This document shows, piece after piece, positions 8,249-50,080 of a stretch of DNA of 64,000 nt. The notes beneath the pieces are model-generated. The model was not told the DNA's origin and did not search any database. It saw nothing but the letters and a program-made list of their open reading frames with translations. Position numbers and translations under genes: made by a program. Within the stretch, counting starts at the first letter, position 1. Each line of letters starts with the position of its first letter. This stretch comes from Sulfurospirillum sp. (lineage in GTDB: Bacteria; Campylobacterota; Campylobacteria; Campylobacterales; QNZT01), in the NCBI GenBank assembly GCA_024762875.1, contig JANTGR010000001.1:45338-109337 (forward strand), in the 5' to 3' direction.

Positions 8249-8924
8249 GTTTTAAAAAAAAGTAGTGATCGCCCTCCAATGGGAAAAAAGAGTTCTCAGG
8301 TATCAATGCAGCTATCTTCTCACCTGTAAAAAGCGGTGTGGCACTGTCATCTTTTCCCCAAAAGAGTAAAGCTTTTTTTTGAAAATGGCTAAAATGCGCT
8401 GAAAAGTCTTCATCTACGACATTTTTGAATGTTTTATACATCGCTTCACTCATACCTTCAACATCTTTGGAAACAAAAAAACGGCGTAAGCTGCTGATAC
8501 CAAAAGGTTTCAAGAGTTTAAAAAGTTTGATTTTTGCTCGTACTTTAAATGACTTGGGTACTATAATACCGGCAGAACTGAGCAAGACCAGCAGATCCGG
8601 ATTGAGCAGGGTGGCAACTTTGCCGCCAAAGGAGTGCCCAAATACGACAGCAGGCTGCACATCCAGCTCTTCTAAAAATTGTATCATGATAGCGGCATAA
8701 TCATGGGTGGTCAATACCGTCTCGTTTGGACTTTTACCAAAGCCCGGCATATCAATATAGAGATGCCTGTGATCTTTAAAATAGTTGCCAAAAGCACTTT
8801 TCATGACTTCTTTGTTACTGCCCCAGCCATGCAGGATGATGATAGTTTCTTCTATCTTTGGATGTATAATCTCATAGTTGATATTGTAGGATATGCCCTG
8901 ATATAGTATCTGCCTGTTTGCCAT
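8196..8924 (-). CDS. alpha/beta-fold hydrolase
   Basis: 242 aa. It has an HG oxyanion motif (ILHGWGS) and a nucleophile elbow (GHSFGG). Confidence 0.75.
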   Translation of the reverse strand: MANRQILYQGISYNINYEIIHPKIEETIIILHGWGSNKEVMKSAFGNYFKDHRHLYIDMPGFGKSPNETVLTTHDYAAIMIQFLEELDVQPAVVFGHSFGGKVATLLNPDLLVLLSSAGIIVPKSFKVRAKIKLFKLLKPFGISSLRRFFVSKDVEGMSEAMYKTFKNVVDEDFSAHFSHFQKKALLFWGKDDSATPLFTGEKIAALIPENSFFPLEGDHYFFLKHAAFIQEQIYKELHAKH

Positions 8925-8957
8925 GAAGTTTTTAACTGCCTTTGGTATAATTGTATA

Positions 8958-9308
8958 ATGAATGATTTTACAAAAATTAAGCTTATCAACTCACTTATTG
9001 ATGTGGTAGAGCATTTTTATCTGTTGAAAAACAGCAAAGAGAGCAAAGAGACGCATCATCTTAAAGGATTTTGTGAAGGCATGGCCTATACGCTGATTGA
9101 GATGGAGTATCTCTCTTCTGATGAGGCTGCCACTATTTTGAAAGGTTTGGGAAAAAAAGAGCAGTTTTTAGAGCCAGAAGAACATGATGAACCCAGTGAT
9201 GAAGCAGCACCATTCATAAACGCTATGTCACAAGCTCTGCCTCAGGATGATCTTGATATCCCTACCTTCATACGTAAAAATAAAGACGCAGCATCTTCTG
9301 ATACATAA
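8958..9308 (+). CDS. small hypothetical protein with acidic linker and FtsZ-like C-terminal peptide
   Basis: 116 aa. A helical N-terminal part is followed by an acidic, probably disordered stretch (EPEEHDEPSDEAAP). After that comes DDLDIPTFIRKNK, which matches the conserved FtsZ C-terminal tail motif. Confidence 0.6.
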   Translation: MNDFTKIKLINSLIDVVEHFYLLKNSKESKETHHLKGFCEGMAYTLIEMEYLSSDEAATILKGLGKKEQFLEPEEHDEPSDEAAPFINAMSQALPQDDLDIPTFIRKNKDAASSDT

Positions 9309-9363: not shown

Positions 9364-10440
9364 ATGATTGATTATAAATTGGTGCATGAATATACAAAGT
9401 CTATGCGTATTCTCTATGTTGAGGATAATGCAACTTTGAGAGAAAGTACCCTTCTTGTTCTTGAAAATTTTTTTAAAACTGTTGATACAGCAGTTGACGG
9501 ACTTGATGGTATCGATCATTACAAAACCTATCTCAATCAATATGGCTCTTCTTATGATTTGGTGATCACTGATATCAATATGCCGCATATTGATGGACTG
9601 GAGATGAGTGAAGGGATACGGGAATTGGAACCTGAACAAGCTATCATCTGTATCTCAGCCCACAATGAAACAACTTATCTGCTAAAGGCAATACAAATAG
9701 GGATTTCAAGCTTTTTGCTTAAACCTTTAATCATGCAGAATTTAGCGCAAGAACTCTATAAAATCTGTCAGGCAATCAGTGATAGAAAATTGGTAAGAGA
9801 GTACTATCAGCAGCTAGAAGAGATGAATGAAAGACTTGAAAAGCAAAAAGAAGAGTTGCAGTTAAAGACCCTGGAACAGGAAAAATTGCTGCGTTTACTC
9901 GATACTATCGGAATCAAAAGTGACAATAGAGAAAAATCTGCAGTGCAAAAAAGCATGCAACCAGAGCAAACGCATACACTGAGAGAGAAAGAGGATGTCT
10001 ATTATGCACAAATAGAGGAGCTTATTTGTGAAGATCTTACCGAGTTGCAGGAGCTGCATACTGAGATAGATGCAAATATCATTGCTATTATTGGTGGTGA
10101 TGACAGTTTGATAGAGAAAATATCTTCTCTTTTCACACGGTATGCATCCATTTTAGGAGCGTATTCGAGTTTTGATGCTCTAAGTGCGGCTATGATGGAT
10201 TTTACGCATGCCATGACTATAGAGCCATTACCTAAAAACAGTGCACAAACAAAAGAGATATTTACATTTTTGGAAGCCTTTATGTATATTTTGGGTAAAT
10301 GGCAAAAAGAGTTATTGGCACAAAGTGATAAAAAACTCAATCAATTAGATGTGTCAATTATCGGAGATATCGAAACAATTACCAATATGTGGCTTGCAGG
10401 AGAGGAAAGTTCCCAGGAGTGTGAGGTAGAATTTTTCTAA
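9364..10440 (+). CDS. response-regulator receiver protein with coiled-coil and helical C-terminal domain (no DNA-binding domain recognised)
   Basis: The REC domain reads MRILYVEDNATLRE...DLVITDINMPHIDGLE...LLKPL. A coiled coil follows (EEMNERLEKQKEELQLKTLEQEK). The C-terminal helical region is weakly Hpt-like and ends in EVEFF. Confidence 0.75.
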   Translation: MIDYKLVHEYTKSMRILYVEDNATLRESTLLVLENFFKTVDTAVDGLDGIDHYKTYLNQYGSSYDLVITDINMPHIDGLEMSEGIRELEPEQAIICISAHNETTYLLKAIQIGISSFLLKPLIMQNLAQELYKICQAISDRKLVREYYQQLEEMNERLEKQKEELQLKTLEQEKLLRLLDTIGIKSDNREKSAVQKSMQPEQTHTLREKEDVYYAQIEELICEDLTELQELHTEIDANIIAIIGGDDSLIEKISSLFTRYASILGAYSSFDALSAAMMDFTHAMTIEPLPKNSAQTKEIFTFLEAFMYILGKWQKELLAQSDKKLNQLDVSIIGDIETITNMWLAGEESSQECEVEFF

Positions 10441-11194: not shown

Positions 11195-11644
11195 TTAAGC
11201 CAATATCCGTTGATACTCTTCGAAGATTTCATCTTTTAGTTTTTCTGCTTCTTCATTACCATGTTTACAATTGCTTTTGATAACAGCTTCGAGACGTTCT
11301 AAAATAGTGATAAAATCCTGTTCTACCTCTTTTTTGGGTTTGTTCTTTGAAAGTACTGTTTCATAAAAAGAGGCTTTTCTGATCAAATCATTTAATTCCC
11401 GCATGACTGCTTTTTCATCACAGTTTTCATTAGGACAAAAGCGTGGGTTAGAGCATTCAATATCACTATCCAAATCTTTTTTCAAAGCCCTGATGTACTC
11501 TTGGAGTTTAGCTGAAAACATCGCATATCTCGGCGAGTTGTCTTTGGTCTTTTCTTCTATCTTTTGTGTTACTTTGTTGATATTTTGGTACATAAAGTAA
11601 GTTACCACTGAACCTACCAATACGACTGAAAATATATCTATCAT
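11195..11644 (-). CDS. hypothetical membrane-anchored protein
   Basis: 149 aa. It has a single N-terminal TM segment (IFSVVLVGSVVTYFMY) and is otherwise charged and helical. I recognised no motif. Confidence 0.45.
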   Translation of the reverse strand: MIDIFSVVLVGSVVTYFMYQNINKVTQKIEEKTKDNSPRYAMFSAKLQEYIRALKKDLDSDIECSNPRFCPNENCDEKAVMRELNDLIRKASFYETVLSKNKPKKEVEQDFITILERLEAVIKSNCKHGNEEAEKLKDEIFEEYQRILA

Positions 11645-14836: not shown

Positions 14837-16153
14837 ATGAAAAGTAATACAATCTTTGTTGATAATCATATAGCGATTGATTGCTTAGATTATTGTTCTC
14901 TCTCTTTTTTGTCTTTGGCATTACTGGAAGATGAGAAACAAAATATACTCTTTTTTACTTCACAAAACTATCTTTTGGTAAAAAGTGAATTAAATCATCT
15001 GAAAATAAATACAAAAATTTACAAAAACTACCAGGATCGGGTTGATTTTGTATTTTTAAAAACTACGATGCATCACATGGATGATACCTTTTTTCAACTT
15101 TTTGAAGAAAAAGTGCAAAACTTTTCAGGCGATTTGATATATTTTGACCGAATAGATTATTTTTTAGAATTTACGAAATCTGCAGAATATAAAAAAGCCT
15201 TGGAAAAAATAAAAGTTATTGTCAATCAATATCAGAAAAAAATCATCTATATCTACAGTTCAAAAAGTACACATCACAGTTATATCAATACTGCTATCAA
15301 AAAAAATACAACAAAATTAGATTTTATGAATCGCAACAAGAAGGAAATAAAAATGTCAACACTACACGCCTTGCAAGATGAATTATTAGACGATAAGAAA
15401 CAGCAAAGTCACGCATCTTTTGTCCATGATGAAGAGAGTAAAATACAAGTCATGCTGATGAGTGACAATGATGAGCTTAAGAAATTACAGTATTATATCT
15501 TTTCAAGCTCTGAAGGGGTGGATTACTATACTATCGATCTTTTGCCGGATGATGAGATGTCTATTGTAGAAGAGATGGATATCATCATATATAACAAAGA
15601 AGATCAAACATTGAAAAAAGGTATTTTAGAGTATATCCGCAAAAATAAACTGGCAGCTAAATTTTTTGAAATTACCGACAATGACTATCTTAGACAAAAA
15701 GATCTTTTACTGGCCAATATCGCAGGTGTCGACAAGCTTTTTAAGAAAAATTTTTTGATGGAAGATTTTGTGATGTCGATAGAAATGTATCTCAATAGTA
15801 ACTTTTATTCCAAAAGATTGATCAATCTGGATGTTGACAATGAAATTGTACTCAACAAAAAAGAGAGCTTTGATGATAAAATAAATTTACTGCTCTCTAA
15901 AAAAGTCTTTTTCTCCGTATTGACATACCACTATGAAGCTGATGCAGATATAGGAACATACAACATCCAAAAAATTGTCAGGGAATATGATAATATCTAT
16001 ATCAACGCACGGCACAAACAGATGCACTTTCTCATCTTAAATACCATTCCTGATTTTGCGAAAGAGTTGATAGAAGAACGTATACAAAACTTTTCAATTA
16101 TACTGGAAGAAAAAGAGAGAAAATCTGCTTTTGATCTGGTTTTTGATAATTAA
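14837..16153 (+). CDS. hypothetical protein (Lys/Asn-rich, no confident domain)
   Basis: 438 aa. It forms a long ORF in coding-like context. I see only weak resemblance to degenerate RecA/KaiC-like, receiver-like and GGDEF-like segments, and no catalytic motifs. Confidence 0.45.
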   Translation: MKSNTIFVDNHIAIDCLDYCSLSFLSLALLEDEKQNILFFTSQNYLLVKSELNHLKINTKIYKNYQDRVDFVFLKTTMHHMDDTFFQLFEEKVQNFSGDLIYFDRIDYFLEFTKSAEYKKALEKIKVIVNQYQKKIIYIYSSKSTHHSYINTAIKKNTTKLDFMNRNKKEIKMSTLHALQDELLDDKKQQSHASFVHDEESKIQVMLMSDNDELKKLQYYIFSSSEGVDYYTIDLLPDDEMSIVEEMDIIIYNKEDQTLKKGILEYIRKNKLAAKFFEITDNDYLRQKDLLLANIAGVDKLFKKNFLMEDFVMSIEMYLNSNFYSKRLINLDVDNEIVLNKKESFDDKINLLLSKKVFFSVLTYHYEADADIGTYNIQKIVREYDNIYINARHKQMHFLILNTIPDFAKELIEERIQNFSIILEEKERKSAFDLVFDN

Positions 16154-21005: not shown

Positions 21006-21676
21006 AAATAGCGGTTGTAGTCTTTCCGGGAACAAATTGTGAATATGATACAAAATACGCGTATGAAATGCTTGGAGCCACGGTAGAACTGGTATGGCAT
21101 AAAGCAGACAAGTTGCCTGATAATTGTGATTTGGTAGTCTTGCCTGGTGGTTTTTCATATGGTGATGCCTTGAGATCAGGTTCGATTGCCCGTTTTTCTC
21201 CTATTGTCAGTGCTGTGATTGACTATGCCAATGCAGGCGGAAAGGTTCTTGGAATTTGTAACGGTTTTCAAATTTTACTGGAATCAGGTCTTTTGCCTGG
21301 CGCGATGAAGCGTAATGAAAGTGTACATTTTATCTCCCAATACCATCATCTAAAAGTCGAAAACCAGGACAATGCATTTTTAAATCTTTTTGACAAAGGT
21401 GATATCGTCAATATACCGATTGCCCATGCTGAGGGTAATTACTATCTTGAGAAAGAGGCGTTAGCAAAGTTGCATGAAAATGGTCAAATTTTACTGACGT
21501 ATTGTGATGAAAACGGCACACTTTCCAATCCTAACGGATCTAAAGAAGCCATAGCCGGTATCTGCAATAAAAGTAAAAATGTATTTGGTTTGATGCCGCA
21601 CCCTGAACGTGCGATGGAGACCATTTTGGGTTCAAATGATGGTGTTAATATGCTCAAAGGTTTCATGTCTAGATGA
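21002..21676 (+). CDS. purQ: phosphoribosylformylglycinamidine synthase glutaminase subunit PurQ
   Basis: 224 aa. It has the class I amidotransferase motifs GGFSYGD, GICNGFQ and MPHPER. Confidence 0.95.
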   Translation: MKIAVVVFPGTNCEYDTKYAYEMLGATVELVWHKADKLPDNCDLVVLPGGFSYGDALRSGSIARFSPIVSAVIDYANAGGKVLGICNGFQILLESGLLPGAMKRNESVHFISQYHHLKVENQDNAFLNLFDKGDIVNIPIAHAEGNYYLEKEALAKLHENGQILLTYCDENGTLSNPNGSKEAIAGICNKSKNVFGLMPHPERAMETILGSNDGVNMLKGFMSR

Positions 21677-22923
21677 AAACTCTTTTTCTCCCTGTTTTTA
21701 TCCTGCTTTTTGCATTTTCATATCTGCAGGCAGGTTTTTTCTCAAATTTATTTGAGTTTCCGCAAGATAAAAAAGAGAAGCAGTTTGAACAGGTTGAAGA
21801 AGAAGTTATCCCTGCAGATGAGTATTATAATCAAAGTGATGAACCCACTTTTAGTGAGGATGAAAAAGTTTTTTCAGATACACCCAGTGATGATTATAGT
21901 GTTGACAGCAATATTGTCAAAGAAAAAAATATATTTTTATCGTTTCTTGATTATCCTAAAAAAGTGTATGTTAATCAGCATTTTACGATTAAAATCAAAG
22001 CTGTACTTACACAGGAGTATTTAAAAAGTATCAAAGCGTCATTCATTGGCGGAAAAGAGTATAAACTGCTCAATAAAGAGGCTGTCTGGAAAAAACTCGA
22101 CGATAAAAGTTATCTGATAGCTTATACTTTCAAGTTAACTTCCCTTAGTGCTTCTTTGCCAGCTTTTAAAGTGAGTACAACCAATAAAACCGGTACAGCC
22201 AGTCATGAAAAGCTCAAGCCAGAGCCTTTGAGAGTGATAGCTTTAAAAAATGATGAACTTTTCTCAAATATTTTAGCCAATGATTTTTCTTTAATTTCCC
22301 ATCATGAAAAAAAATATGATGAAAAATCAAATATTGTGCTTTTGGAAATCAATGCCACACAATCCAATTTGGAAGATTTTCATCTATCTTACGCAAAAAG
22401 AGAGGGAATTGATTCTTTAAGAAACAATGCAAAGGTGCAAAATATCTTTTATTTTGCTATTGTGCCTTCTTATCAAAAAGAGTTTAAATTTAAATATTTT
22501 AACTTAAACAGTAACAAGTTTAACCGTATCTCTTTTCCGATCATTGTCAGTGATGCCAGTGTCAGTACACAGACAGATTTAAATCCACAGAAAAGTAAAT
22601 ATTTTTTATATAAGGTTATCGCTCTGTTTATTTTGGCTTTTCTGTTTCTGCTTTTATATATCAAATATAAAAAAAATTATTTGTTGATTTTGGCATTAGG
22701 ACTTGTCATTTATACGGTTTATAGTAAATTGATAACCAATAACTTACTTGTAGATCAAAATGTCACCATTAGAATACTACCTACACAAAATTCTACTGTA
22801 TTTTTTAGGACGAGTCAAAAGATGCAGGTAAAAGTACTGTTGAAGAAAAACGGCTATACGAAAGTCTTGTTGCCTGATACCAAAATAGGATGGATAAAAG
22901 ATGATGATCTTTCAAAAAATTAA
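21673..22923 (+). CDS. membrane protein with C-terminal bacterial SH3-like domain
   Basis: 416 aa. It has a signal/TM N-terminus and two TM helices near aa 310-350. The C-terminal segment VTIRILPTQNSTVFFRTSQKMQVKVLLKKNGYTKVLLPDTKIGWIKDDDL looks SH3_3-like. Confidence 0.55.
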   Translation: MKTLFLPVFILLFAFSYLQAGFFSNLFEFPQDKKEKQFEQVEEEVIPADEYYNQSDEPTFSEDEKVFSDTPSDDYSVDSNIVKEKNIFLSFLDYPKKVYVNQHFTIKIKAVLTQEYLKSIKASFIGGKEYKLLNKEAVWKKLDDKSYLIAYTFKLTSLSASLPAFKVSTTNKTGTASHEKLKPEPLRVIALKNDELFSNILANDFSLISHHEKKYDEKSNIVLLEINATQSNLEDFHLSYAKREGIDSLRNNAKVQNIFYFAIVPSYQKEFKFKYFNLNSNKFNRISFPIIVSDASVSTQTDLNPQKSKYFLYKVIALFILAFLFLLLYIKYKKNYLLILALGLVIYTVYSKLITNNLLVDQNVTIRILPTQNSTVFFRTSQKMQVKVLLKKNGYTKVLLPDTKIGWIKDDDLSKN

Positions 22924-49859: not shown

Positions 49860-50080
49860 ATAAATTATTATCTCTTATTTTGATTTACAACCCGAGAGAG
49901 CGTCCCATGATTTGATGTAGCCTTTAAAGCTAAAAAATTTAGGAACGATACTCTCTTTAGGGGCAGCTTACGGCTTAGAGCCTTAGCAAAACCGCCGCAC
50001 ACCAAGCGCATACGAGTTCCCTGTACAAGTACAATGTTAGACCCTCGTTAATATGGTTATCGCATCCCTCAGGCATCTCT
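49860..50080 (-). promoter_or_regulatory. structured, comparatively GC-rich 5' leader of purD (candidate purD RNA motif / riboswitch-like element)
   Basis: This is a ~220-nt non-coding gap 5' of purD, with a TATAAT -10 on the minus strand at 50087-50082. Complementary segments include CCCGAGAGAG (49891-49900) with CTCTCTttaGGG (49951-49962), and CGTCC (49901-49905) with GGaACG (49942-49947). A conserved RNA motif 5' of purD has been described for Campylobacterales. Confidence 0.5.

Follow-up and report, generated by a model that had tools for sequence, protein, structure and literature searches.

A small Campylobacterales protein family with an FtsZ-type C-terminal peptide tethered to an unrelated, predicted three-helix head

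Introduction

The C-terminal peptide of FtsZ is a central hub contact of cell division, which has so far been treated as the private handle of FtsZ. The peptide comprises 8 residues, among them a conserved D, P and F, and it is here that FtsA, ZipA, SepF, ZapD, MinC and SlmA dock (PMC9939409); in E. coli the FtsZ tail is additionally a ClpXP recognition signal, or degron (PMC8138137). In the window studied here, the whole stretch of 64,000 nucleotides that was analysed, the first-pass annotation drew attention to a 116-aa open reading frame (ORF116) that appeared to end in such a peptide while bearing a small head unrelated to FtsZ. The question raised by this locus is whether a protein other than FtsZ carries a copy of the FtsZ tail and, if so, what the protein might do with it.

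ORF116 is a gene under purifying selection

ORF116 starts with ATG and ends with TAA, and its encoded residues are exactly those quoted in the first-pass annotation. The protein is identical to P0001 of public assemblies. ORF116 is a real gene under selection, with dN/dS values of 0.14–0.35 between close pairs of the family genes described below. Around it, the window consists of ordinary housekeeping DNA of the chromosome; ftsZ was not found within its 64 kb, and the signature GGGTG[ST]G was absent from all six of its frames. The gene, its promoter box and the segments of the protein lie as follows:

8943..8951, + strand: extended -10 box TGgTATAAT, read from the sequence, its end 6 nt upstream of the ATG
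8958..9308, + strand: gene for the 116-aa protein, from the list of open reading frames and the sequence, with the stop codon at 9306-9308
8958..9161, + strand: head domain, residues 1-68, three-helix bundle according to AlphaFold2 and conservation
9162..9245, + strand: disordered acidic linker, residues 69-96, QFLEPEEHDEPSDEAAPFINAMSQALPQ, assigned from pLDDT and composition
9246..9284, + strand: FtsZ-type C-terminal peptide, residues 97-109, DDLDIPTFIRKNK, assigned from the PSSM, hhalign and the PDB profile match
9285..9305, + strand: variable extension, residues 110-116 (DAASSDT), at the position of the C-terminal variable region of FtsZ

A family of narrow range that keeps its tail

Searches for homologues, which the first-pass annotation had advised, recovered a conserved family. 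A search of 5.8 billion proteins returned 85 homologues of 93–147 aa, a second search seeded with distant members extended this to ~130 clusters, and HMMER, run in full against 1.84 billion representatives, yielded only 22. The family is small and limited to one narrow clade, and therefore cannot be a general component of the divisome. All members with informative names stem from metagenome-assembled Campylobacterales or 'Epsilonproteobacteria', none of them with a functional name, and the named carriers are uncultured Campylobacterales MAGs of deep-sea and vent bacteria. The protein has no match in Pfam (E <= 10 for ORF116) or in NCBIfam, and the family is undescribed.

Conservation of the tail had been set beforehand as the point on which the reading could be refuted, and the tail turned out to be kept across 128 members, with P and R invariant. 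The residue counts (L 127, D/E 128, P 128, T 125, R 128 and K 107 among the 128 members) are reflected in the family logo [N/D/E]-[D/N/S]-L-[D/E]-[I/V/L]-P-T-[I/F/V/Y]-[F/L/I/M]-R-K-[K/N/E/Q]. This is the most constrained segment of the protein (75% identity), and the invariant R is followed by a further 2–16 residues of non-conserved sequence. In one subclade (P0034, P0036-P0038, P0058, P0063, P0071, P0075 and P0080, among others) a second motif, (S/T)TPD(S/N/D)SL(I/T/V/A)-COOH, is located C-terminal to the FtsZ-type peptide; it is absent from the window protein and may serve as an additional signal for docking or recognition.

Resemblance of the tail to the FtsZ C-terminal peptide

The first-pass annotation equated the tail of ORF116 (DDLDIPTFIRKNKDAASSDT) with the FtsZ C-terminal peptide, and the comparison holds at each level at which it was made. 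The tail conforms to the consensus of FtsZ-type peptides, acidic-L-D-[IV]-P-x-[FY/φ]-[LM/φ]-R-[KRN], and, as in FtsZ, is located near the C-terminus with a variable disordered linker upstream. Of the reference peptides named at the outset, the B. subtilis LDIPTFLRNRN was confirmed, and FtsZ tails are quoted for both E. coli (DIPAFLR...KQAD) and B. subtilis (DIPTFLR...NRNKRG) in the literature (PMC6657595). Within the window, the regular expression D[IVL]Px[FYVIL][FLIMV]R[KRNQ] has a single match in six frames.

FtsZ from the same phylum was represented by 120 retrieved Campylobacterota sequences, which do not include the FtsZ of the window organism; the query was an approximate H. pylori FtsZ, 94% identical to database entries, and the retrieved sequences alone served as evidence. 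Outside H. pylori, these proteins terminate in …(E/D)D(I/Y)LD(I/V/T)PTFLR(K/N/R)QMD, as exemplified by DFLDIPTFLRKQMD and DILDIPTFLRNQMD. A PSSM built solely from 57 distinct Campylobacterota FtsZ tails assigns 28.3 bits to DDLDIPTFIRKN of ORF116, compared with 18.7–40.3 bits for the FtsZ tails themselves. This 12-mer ranks first among the 71,338 stop-free 12-mers of the window (background mean -27.3, sd 7.1, corresponding to z ~7.8), the runner-up reaching 6.5 bits. Judged by this position-specific model, the ORF116 tail is indistinguishable from the FtsZ tails of its phylum. In addition, 97 sequences scanned with the PSSM all have their best site near the C-terminus (10.7–38.3 bits) with the exception of P0083, which is without a recognisable tail, and among the 296,830 12-mers of 30 related loci every match of at least 10 bits is the tail of a family member or of FtsZ.

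Profile comparisons lead to the same peptide. Alignment of the family with FtsZ C-termini by hhalign is restricted to 17 tail columns (probability 89.7%, E 1.8e-6), and the family profile, searched against all PDB sequences, finds FtsZ first and at its tail (P. aeruginosa, E 0.011; B. subtilis, E 0.72). We note that the P. aeruginosa FtsZ in question (PDB 2VAW) has two peptide-like repeats, DLDRPTVMRNQ and LDIPAFLRRQAD. The family and FtsZ share the invariant positions L(-3), D/E(-2), P(0) and R(+4), as well as T at +1 and a hydrophobic or aromatic pair at +2/+3, and the information content per position is correlated between the two sets of tails (r = 0.78).

These figures bear directly on the possibility that the tail carries no biological meaning, being a product of chance, a membrane-targeting amphipathic end or part of an untranslated ORF. 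Such a reading could draw on the shortness of the motif and on searches of the PDB with single peptides, where phmmer with the tail alone gave one match, to the C-terminus of FtsZ but not significant (E 2), and two variant family tails found nothing. It is opposed by the PSSM score (z ~7.8, with no false positives), by the invariance of P and R and the presence of L in 127/128 members, by the low dN/dS (0.14–0.35) and by the conserved synteny and promoter box described below, and the strict L-D-x-P-T segment would have no role in a simple membrane anchor. Chance is effectively excluded as an explanation, and the reading as a whole, which we regard as highly improbable, is largely refuted.

Departures from the FtsZ peptide

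The tail does not reproduce every feature of FtsZ. The terminal Q-(M/K)-D-COOH of FtsZ is not copied; in its place, family members have K-K/N and then a variable end. At position +3, F is present in 72/128 family members, but L or M in 73/88 sampled FtsZ tails, where F is not among the four commonest residues. The FtsZ tail of T. maritima, DIPAIYR, has an I-aromatic pair like the I-F of the family; a search of the literature did not return the T. maritima peptide string. Campylobacterota FtsZ linkers (P0157-P0218) have a second conserved patch, R(K/R)(V/I)(V/S)GG, located 15–20 residues before the C-terminal peptide, and family members lack the patch R(K/R)VVGG. The absence of Q-(M/K)-D, the F at +3 and the location of the gene, which is never beside ftsA or ftsZ, weaken the simple view of the tail as a perfect mimic.

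Motifs of ~9 residues can converge on different partners, and the tail could be a convergent or diverged motif that binds a receptor outside the division machinery, or a ClpXP-type degradation or recognition signal. The preference for F at +3, the residue after +4 and the C-terminus, all of which differ from FtsZ, speak for this, as does the lack of a genomic link to ftsAZ, and the degradation variant is in keeping with the fact that FtsZ of E. coli has its tail listed among ClpXP degrons (PMC8138137). Nevertheless, the whole core L-D-x-P-T-φ-φ-R matches FtsZ of the same phylum, and nothing else matched among ~368,000 twelve-residue windows of six-frame translations, such that we consider a different receptor rather unlikely.

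A conserved head and a variable linker present the tail

AlphaFold2, using a 40-sequence alignment, predicts three helices within the head (residues 2-26, 29-48 and 54-64) with pLDDT ~83-96, and the same three-helix bundle is predicted for P0097, a distant member of 80 aa. The head encompasses the conserved motifs KLINSLID, LKGFCEG and ILKGLGKK and 21 invariant positions. Relatives of the head were sought by Foldseek against the PDB and by sequence in Pfam, NCBIfam and the PDB, and none was significant; the best Foldseek match, bS20 (E 0.5), is a generic three-helix bundle. The nearest candidate by sequence was B. subtilis YnzC/UPF0291 (PDB 2HEP), which is likewise small, with a helical head and a disordered C-terminus, and which gives a weak local match in helix 2 (LKGF…TL; hmmsearch E 0.15 over 37 residues; hhalign probability 42% over 26 columns). 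However, YnzC has no FtsZ-type tail and no DUF896 match is listed for family members, and the resemblance, weak and not significant, is unconvincing and was not adopted as a relationship.

The head is followed by a linker (residues 69-96) that contains 7 acidic and 0 basic residues, and the AlphaFold2 model falls below pLDDT 50 for residues 73-97 before residues 103-111 form a short low-confidence helix. Across the 128 members, the linker spans 13–86 aa (median 27) and is E/K-rich, and in P0096 and P0097 its length is near zero with the tail kept as ELDIPTIYRGT or EFEVPTILRTK. Mean identity to ORF116 is 65% for the head (1-68), 9% for the linker (69-96) and 75% for the tail core (99-107). The order of head, disordered linker and tail proposed in the first-pass annotation is thus borne out by the AlphaFold2 model and by the identities of the segments. 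With a linker that varies in sequence and length between a conserved head and a tail that is kept, this pattern is, as far as sequence and model can tell, characteristic of a folded domain to which a short linear docking motif is tethered.

The close association of head and tail could also mean that the head is itself a receptor for such peptides, binding its own tail in an autoinhibited form or in chains, and possibly the tail of FtsZ, so that FtsZ filaments would be linked to another tail. In favour of this, strong conservation extends to both head and tail, neither of which is seen without the other, and in the members that lack a linker the tail directly follows the head. Yet AlphaFold2 does not pack the tail confidently on the head (pLDDT ~59 in ORF116; 72 down to 53 in P0097), and the head is unlike any known receptor of the FtsZ tail. 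We therefore consider a receptor function of the head improbable, and favour the tail as a tethered motif that docks elsewhere.

The gene occupies one chromosomal slot

Across 20 species representatives, every one a MAG, the family gene occupies one fixed slot between estV-murF and ate. It is oriented divergently from estV (a bioV-like hydrolase gene) and murF, and convergently with ate and the gene for a hypothetical protein of 149 aa, after which comes a class-II DAHP synthase gene. The genes for the distant members P0092 and P0093 are also divergent from a hydrolase gene, beyond which the P0092 locus has a Mur-ligase gene. The most distant family-like protein, P0096 (76 aa, with the tail EFEVPTILRTK), lies in a different neighbourhood, represented by 13 contigs; around its gene (6001-6231 in L143; L143-L145) the surroundings are rich in toxin-antitoxin genes, and it adjoins an ankyrin-repeat gene. 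In the loci examined, neither ftsA nor ftsZ ever adjoins the family gene, the fixed neighbours being estV-murF and ate.

Two further genes of the neighbourhood deserve mention. In the window, a response-regulator gene (9364-10440, + strand), which encodes a receiver domain and ~230 aa without a family match, begins 55 nt downstream of ORF116 with its own AAGGAG and no predicted terminator between them; apart from the window, only L002 and L003 have it, and elsewhere the family gene abuts ate directly. The conserved 149-aa protein (window 11195-11644, - strand) always accompanies ate beside the family gene, has no family match and, judged by eye, appears to have an N-terminal membrane helix.

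A carrier of the family gene may be compared with its own FtsZ in a single case (n=1), the MAG named Campylobacteraceae bacterium 4484_4 at NCBI, where the family protein P0091 and the FtsZ P0211 both derive from run SRR6301444 and P0211 is encoded in an ftsA-ftsZ operon. This carrier therefore has a normal FtsA/FtsZ pair in addition to the family protein. The tails of P0091 (SLDIPTIFRKKRQKEP) and P0211 (DDDLDYPTFLRRQMD) are identical at 5/12 positions (SLDIPTIFRKK vs DLDYPTFLRRQ), with the core L, D, P, T and R in common. A second FtsZ, P0204, was discarded as a same-genome partner because it belongs to other assemblies.

The arrangement of the locus also bears on whether the protein is a pure decoy, that is, a dedicated competitive inhibitor that would sequester FtsA or further tail receptors at the expense of FtsZ and so brake division, the head serving only for stability, dimerisation or regulation. 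The evidence from the tail is identical for such a decoy and for an adaptor, and small regulators are commonly encoded, as here, by a gene that stands alone behind a promoter of its own, placed immediately ahead of the ATG. On the other hand, the constraint on the head, with 21 invariant positions and the likely surface motifs KGFCEG and GLGKK, exceeds what a passive carrier would need, and the gene is a fixed component of a chromosomal housekeeping region in every genome seen, not of a stress island or prophage. A pure decoy is, in our estimation, unlikely.

Relation to known proteins and motifs

The likeness to FtsZ is limited to the tail region, where, as in the 'grappling hook' of FtsZ, a variable disordered linker leads to L-D-[IV]-P-[TA]-φ-φ-R-[KN] close to the C-terminus, with a short variable end behind it, and where ORF116 shares 9/12 residues with some Campylobacterota FtsZ tails, such as that of P0184 (DFLDIPTFLRKQ). 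In contrast to FtsZ, the family has no GTPase core (neither PF00091 nor PF12327 among the families listed for 40 members), and its head is an unrelated three-helix bundle by prediction. ORF116 was rejected as an FtsZ on these grounds and because hhalign similarity does not extend beyond the 17 tail columns. The claim that its small head is unrelated to FtsZ stands for the same reasons: the head contains no FtsZ domain and the similarity is limited to tail columns. An origin of the gene in a 3' piece of ftsZ gains no support from hhalign, which detects no similarity outside the peptide, but is not contradicted by it either.

The C-terminal tip of SSB, …DDDIPF-COOH, is another hub-binding tail on a disordered linker that recruits partners, and it must end in Phe-COOH. 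Both have a disordered linker that ends in acidic residues and then D-I-P-(x)-F, but the family tail has an invariant R, usually followed by K, and 2–16 residues after the R, and an SSB-type tip was rejected. MciZ, SulA, phage Kil and T7 Gp0.4 are small FtsZ inhibitors that bind the FtsZ core or filament ends. We know of no report that any of these four has an FtsZ-like tail. Like ORF116 they are small, and they modulate division by way of FtsZ and its partners, as is proposed for the ORF116 family, but they share no sequence similarity with it; T7 Gp0.4 is counted among the small protein inhibitors of FtsZ (PMC4944311). Searches of Pfam, NCBIfam and PDB sequences returned no match that would place the family with ZapA-D, SepF, ZipA, MinC, SlmA, EzrA, MciZ or SulA, and the only PDB sequence match of the family profile tied to division is the FtsZ tail.

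Phage-borne mimics were sought by scanning viral contigs with a degenerate DNA pattern for LDIPTF[LI]RK, and none of the 107 matches was a mimic. The pattern code MGN also admits Ser, and matches in more than 100 IMG/VR contigs (L036-L142) are to a conserved DNA element that reads FDIPTFLSK, in short frames bounded by stops, mostly of 19–34 aa and up to 92. This element is probably a non-coding frame of a conserved gene and unrelated to the family. Of the remaining matches, one is internal to a 1669-aa protein and the rest are FtsZ-type C-termini.

A precedent for one terminal motif on FtsZ and an unrelated protein, both docking at one hub, exists in S. aureus, where a GpsB-recognition motif is present on the C-termini of FtsZ and PBP4 (PMC11062636). 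That case differs in its Arg-rich motif, its hub (GpsB) and its phylum, and there it is FtsZ that carries a PBP-type motif, whereas in the present family the canonical FtsZ peptide is borne by a protein other than FtsZ. In the literature searched, the strings DIPTFLR and DIPAFLR occur in FtsZ contexts only, and no natural FtsZ-tail mimic was found, in agreement with the initial statement that ORF116 is not a described divisome component. Shared hub-docking motifs in general have precedents, but a chromosomal scaffold bearing an FtsZ tail is a new kind of thing.

A possible modulator of Z-ring anchoring

The observation of a small protein with an FtsZ-type tail is confirmed, and each prediction that sequence analysis could check was borne out. 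The functional interpretation as a whole is partly supported by the sequence comparisons, according to which the protein probably connects to the division machinery or competes for it. We suggest that it is a cytoplasmic protein of three parts, the tail of which would be a functional copy of the FtsZ C-terminal peptide and would dock at the receptor sites that bind the tail of FtsZ itself. The main candidate receptor is FtsA, since it is encoded beside ftsZ in these bacteria; MinC or ClpX, where present, would also be possible. Docking would bring the conserved head, together with whatever the head binds, to the membrane-proximal face of the divisome, and would necessarily compete with FtsZ for receptor sites, so that the protein would act both as an adaptor and as a modulator of Z-ring anchoring. 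The binding partner and the cellular location are inferred, as is the relative weight of recruitment and competition. That the protein works in this manner, with its tail docked on FtsA or on other receptors of the FtsZ tail, appears to us an evenly balanced proposition, though the best supported of the readings considered, and the strong conservation of the head, with its 21 invariant positions, favours it over a passive decoy.

More ambitiously, the family may represent the first natural chromosomal mimic of the FtsZ tail, with the protein as a second physiological ligand of the FtsZ pocket of FtsA, and perhaps of further tail receptors, that employs the docking peptide and tether of FtsZ to deliver a new three-helix effector to the divisome and tunes the strength of Z-ring anchoring to the membrane; we view this as a serious possibility that falls somewhat short of even chances. 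If true, FtsZ would have to share, and contend for, the hub sites of FtsA and the regulators, which would add a new layer of control on Z-ring anchoring. The protein of ~100 aa, or a 13-residue peptide, would then also offer a compact natural reagent with which to probe or block the FtsZ-FtsA contact, a target site for antibiotics. Because the tail differs little from the FtsZ peptides of B. subtilis and Campylobacterota, the idea is testable in culturable hosts. Such a finding would surprise division specialists, within the limits set by the uncultured native hosts and the narrow taxonomic range.

Promoter architecture and minor features of the window

The apparently leaderless mRNA is, like the undescribed head domain, a point of smaller interest. 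No Shine-Dalgarno sequence precedes the ATG of ORF116, and a -10-like box (TATAAT or TATACT) ends 5–7 nt upstream of the ATG, again without a Shine-Dalgarno sequence, in ~20 of 23 related loci. The closeness of the -10 box to the ATG and the lack of a Shine-Dalgarno sequence suggest that the mRNA of the family gene is probably leaderless. In L003 and L011, an insertion separates the -10 box from the ATG, and L011 then has a GGAGG. A generic promoter scan of the window found an overlapping copy of TATAAT that ends at 8959, as well as an upstream site at 8878-8907.

Elsewhere in the window, the ORFs at 14837-16153 and 21673-22923 (both + strand; 438 and 416 aa, respectively) have no Pfam match at E <= 1e-5, and a purD RNA motif (Rfam RF01069, 48.6 bits) at 49890-50013 on the - strand is the sole Rfam family to reach its gathering score.
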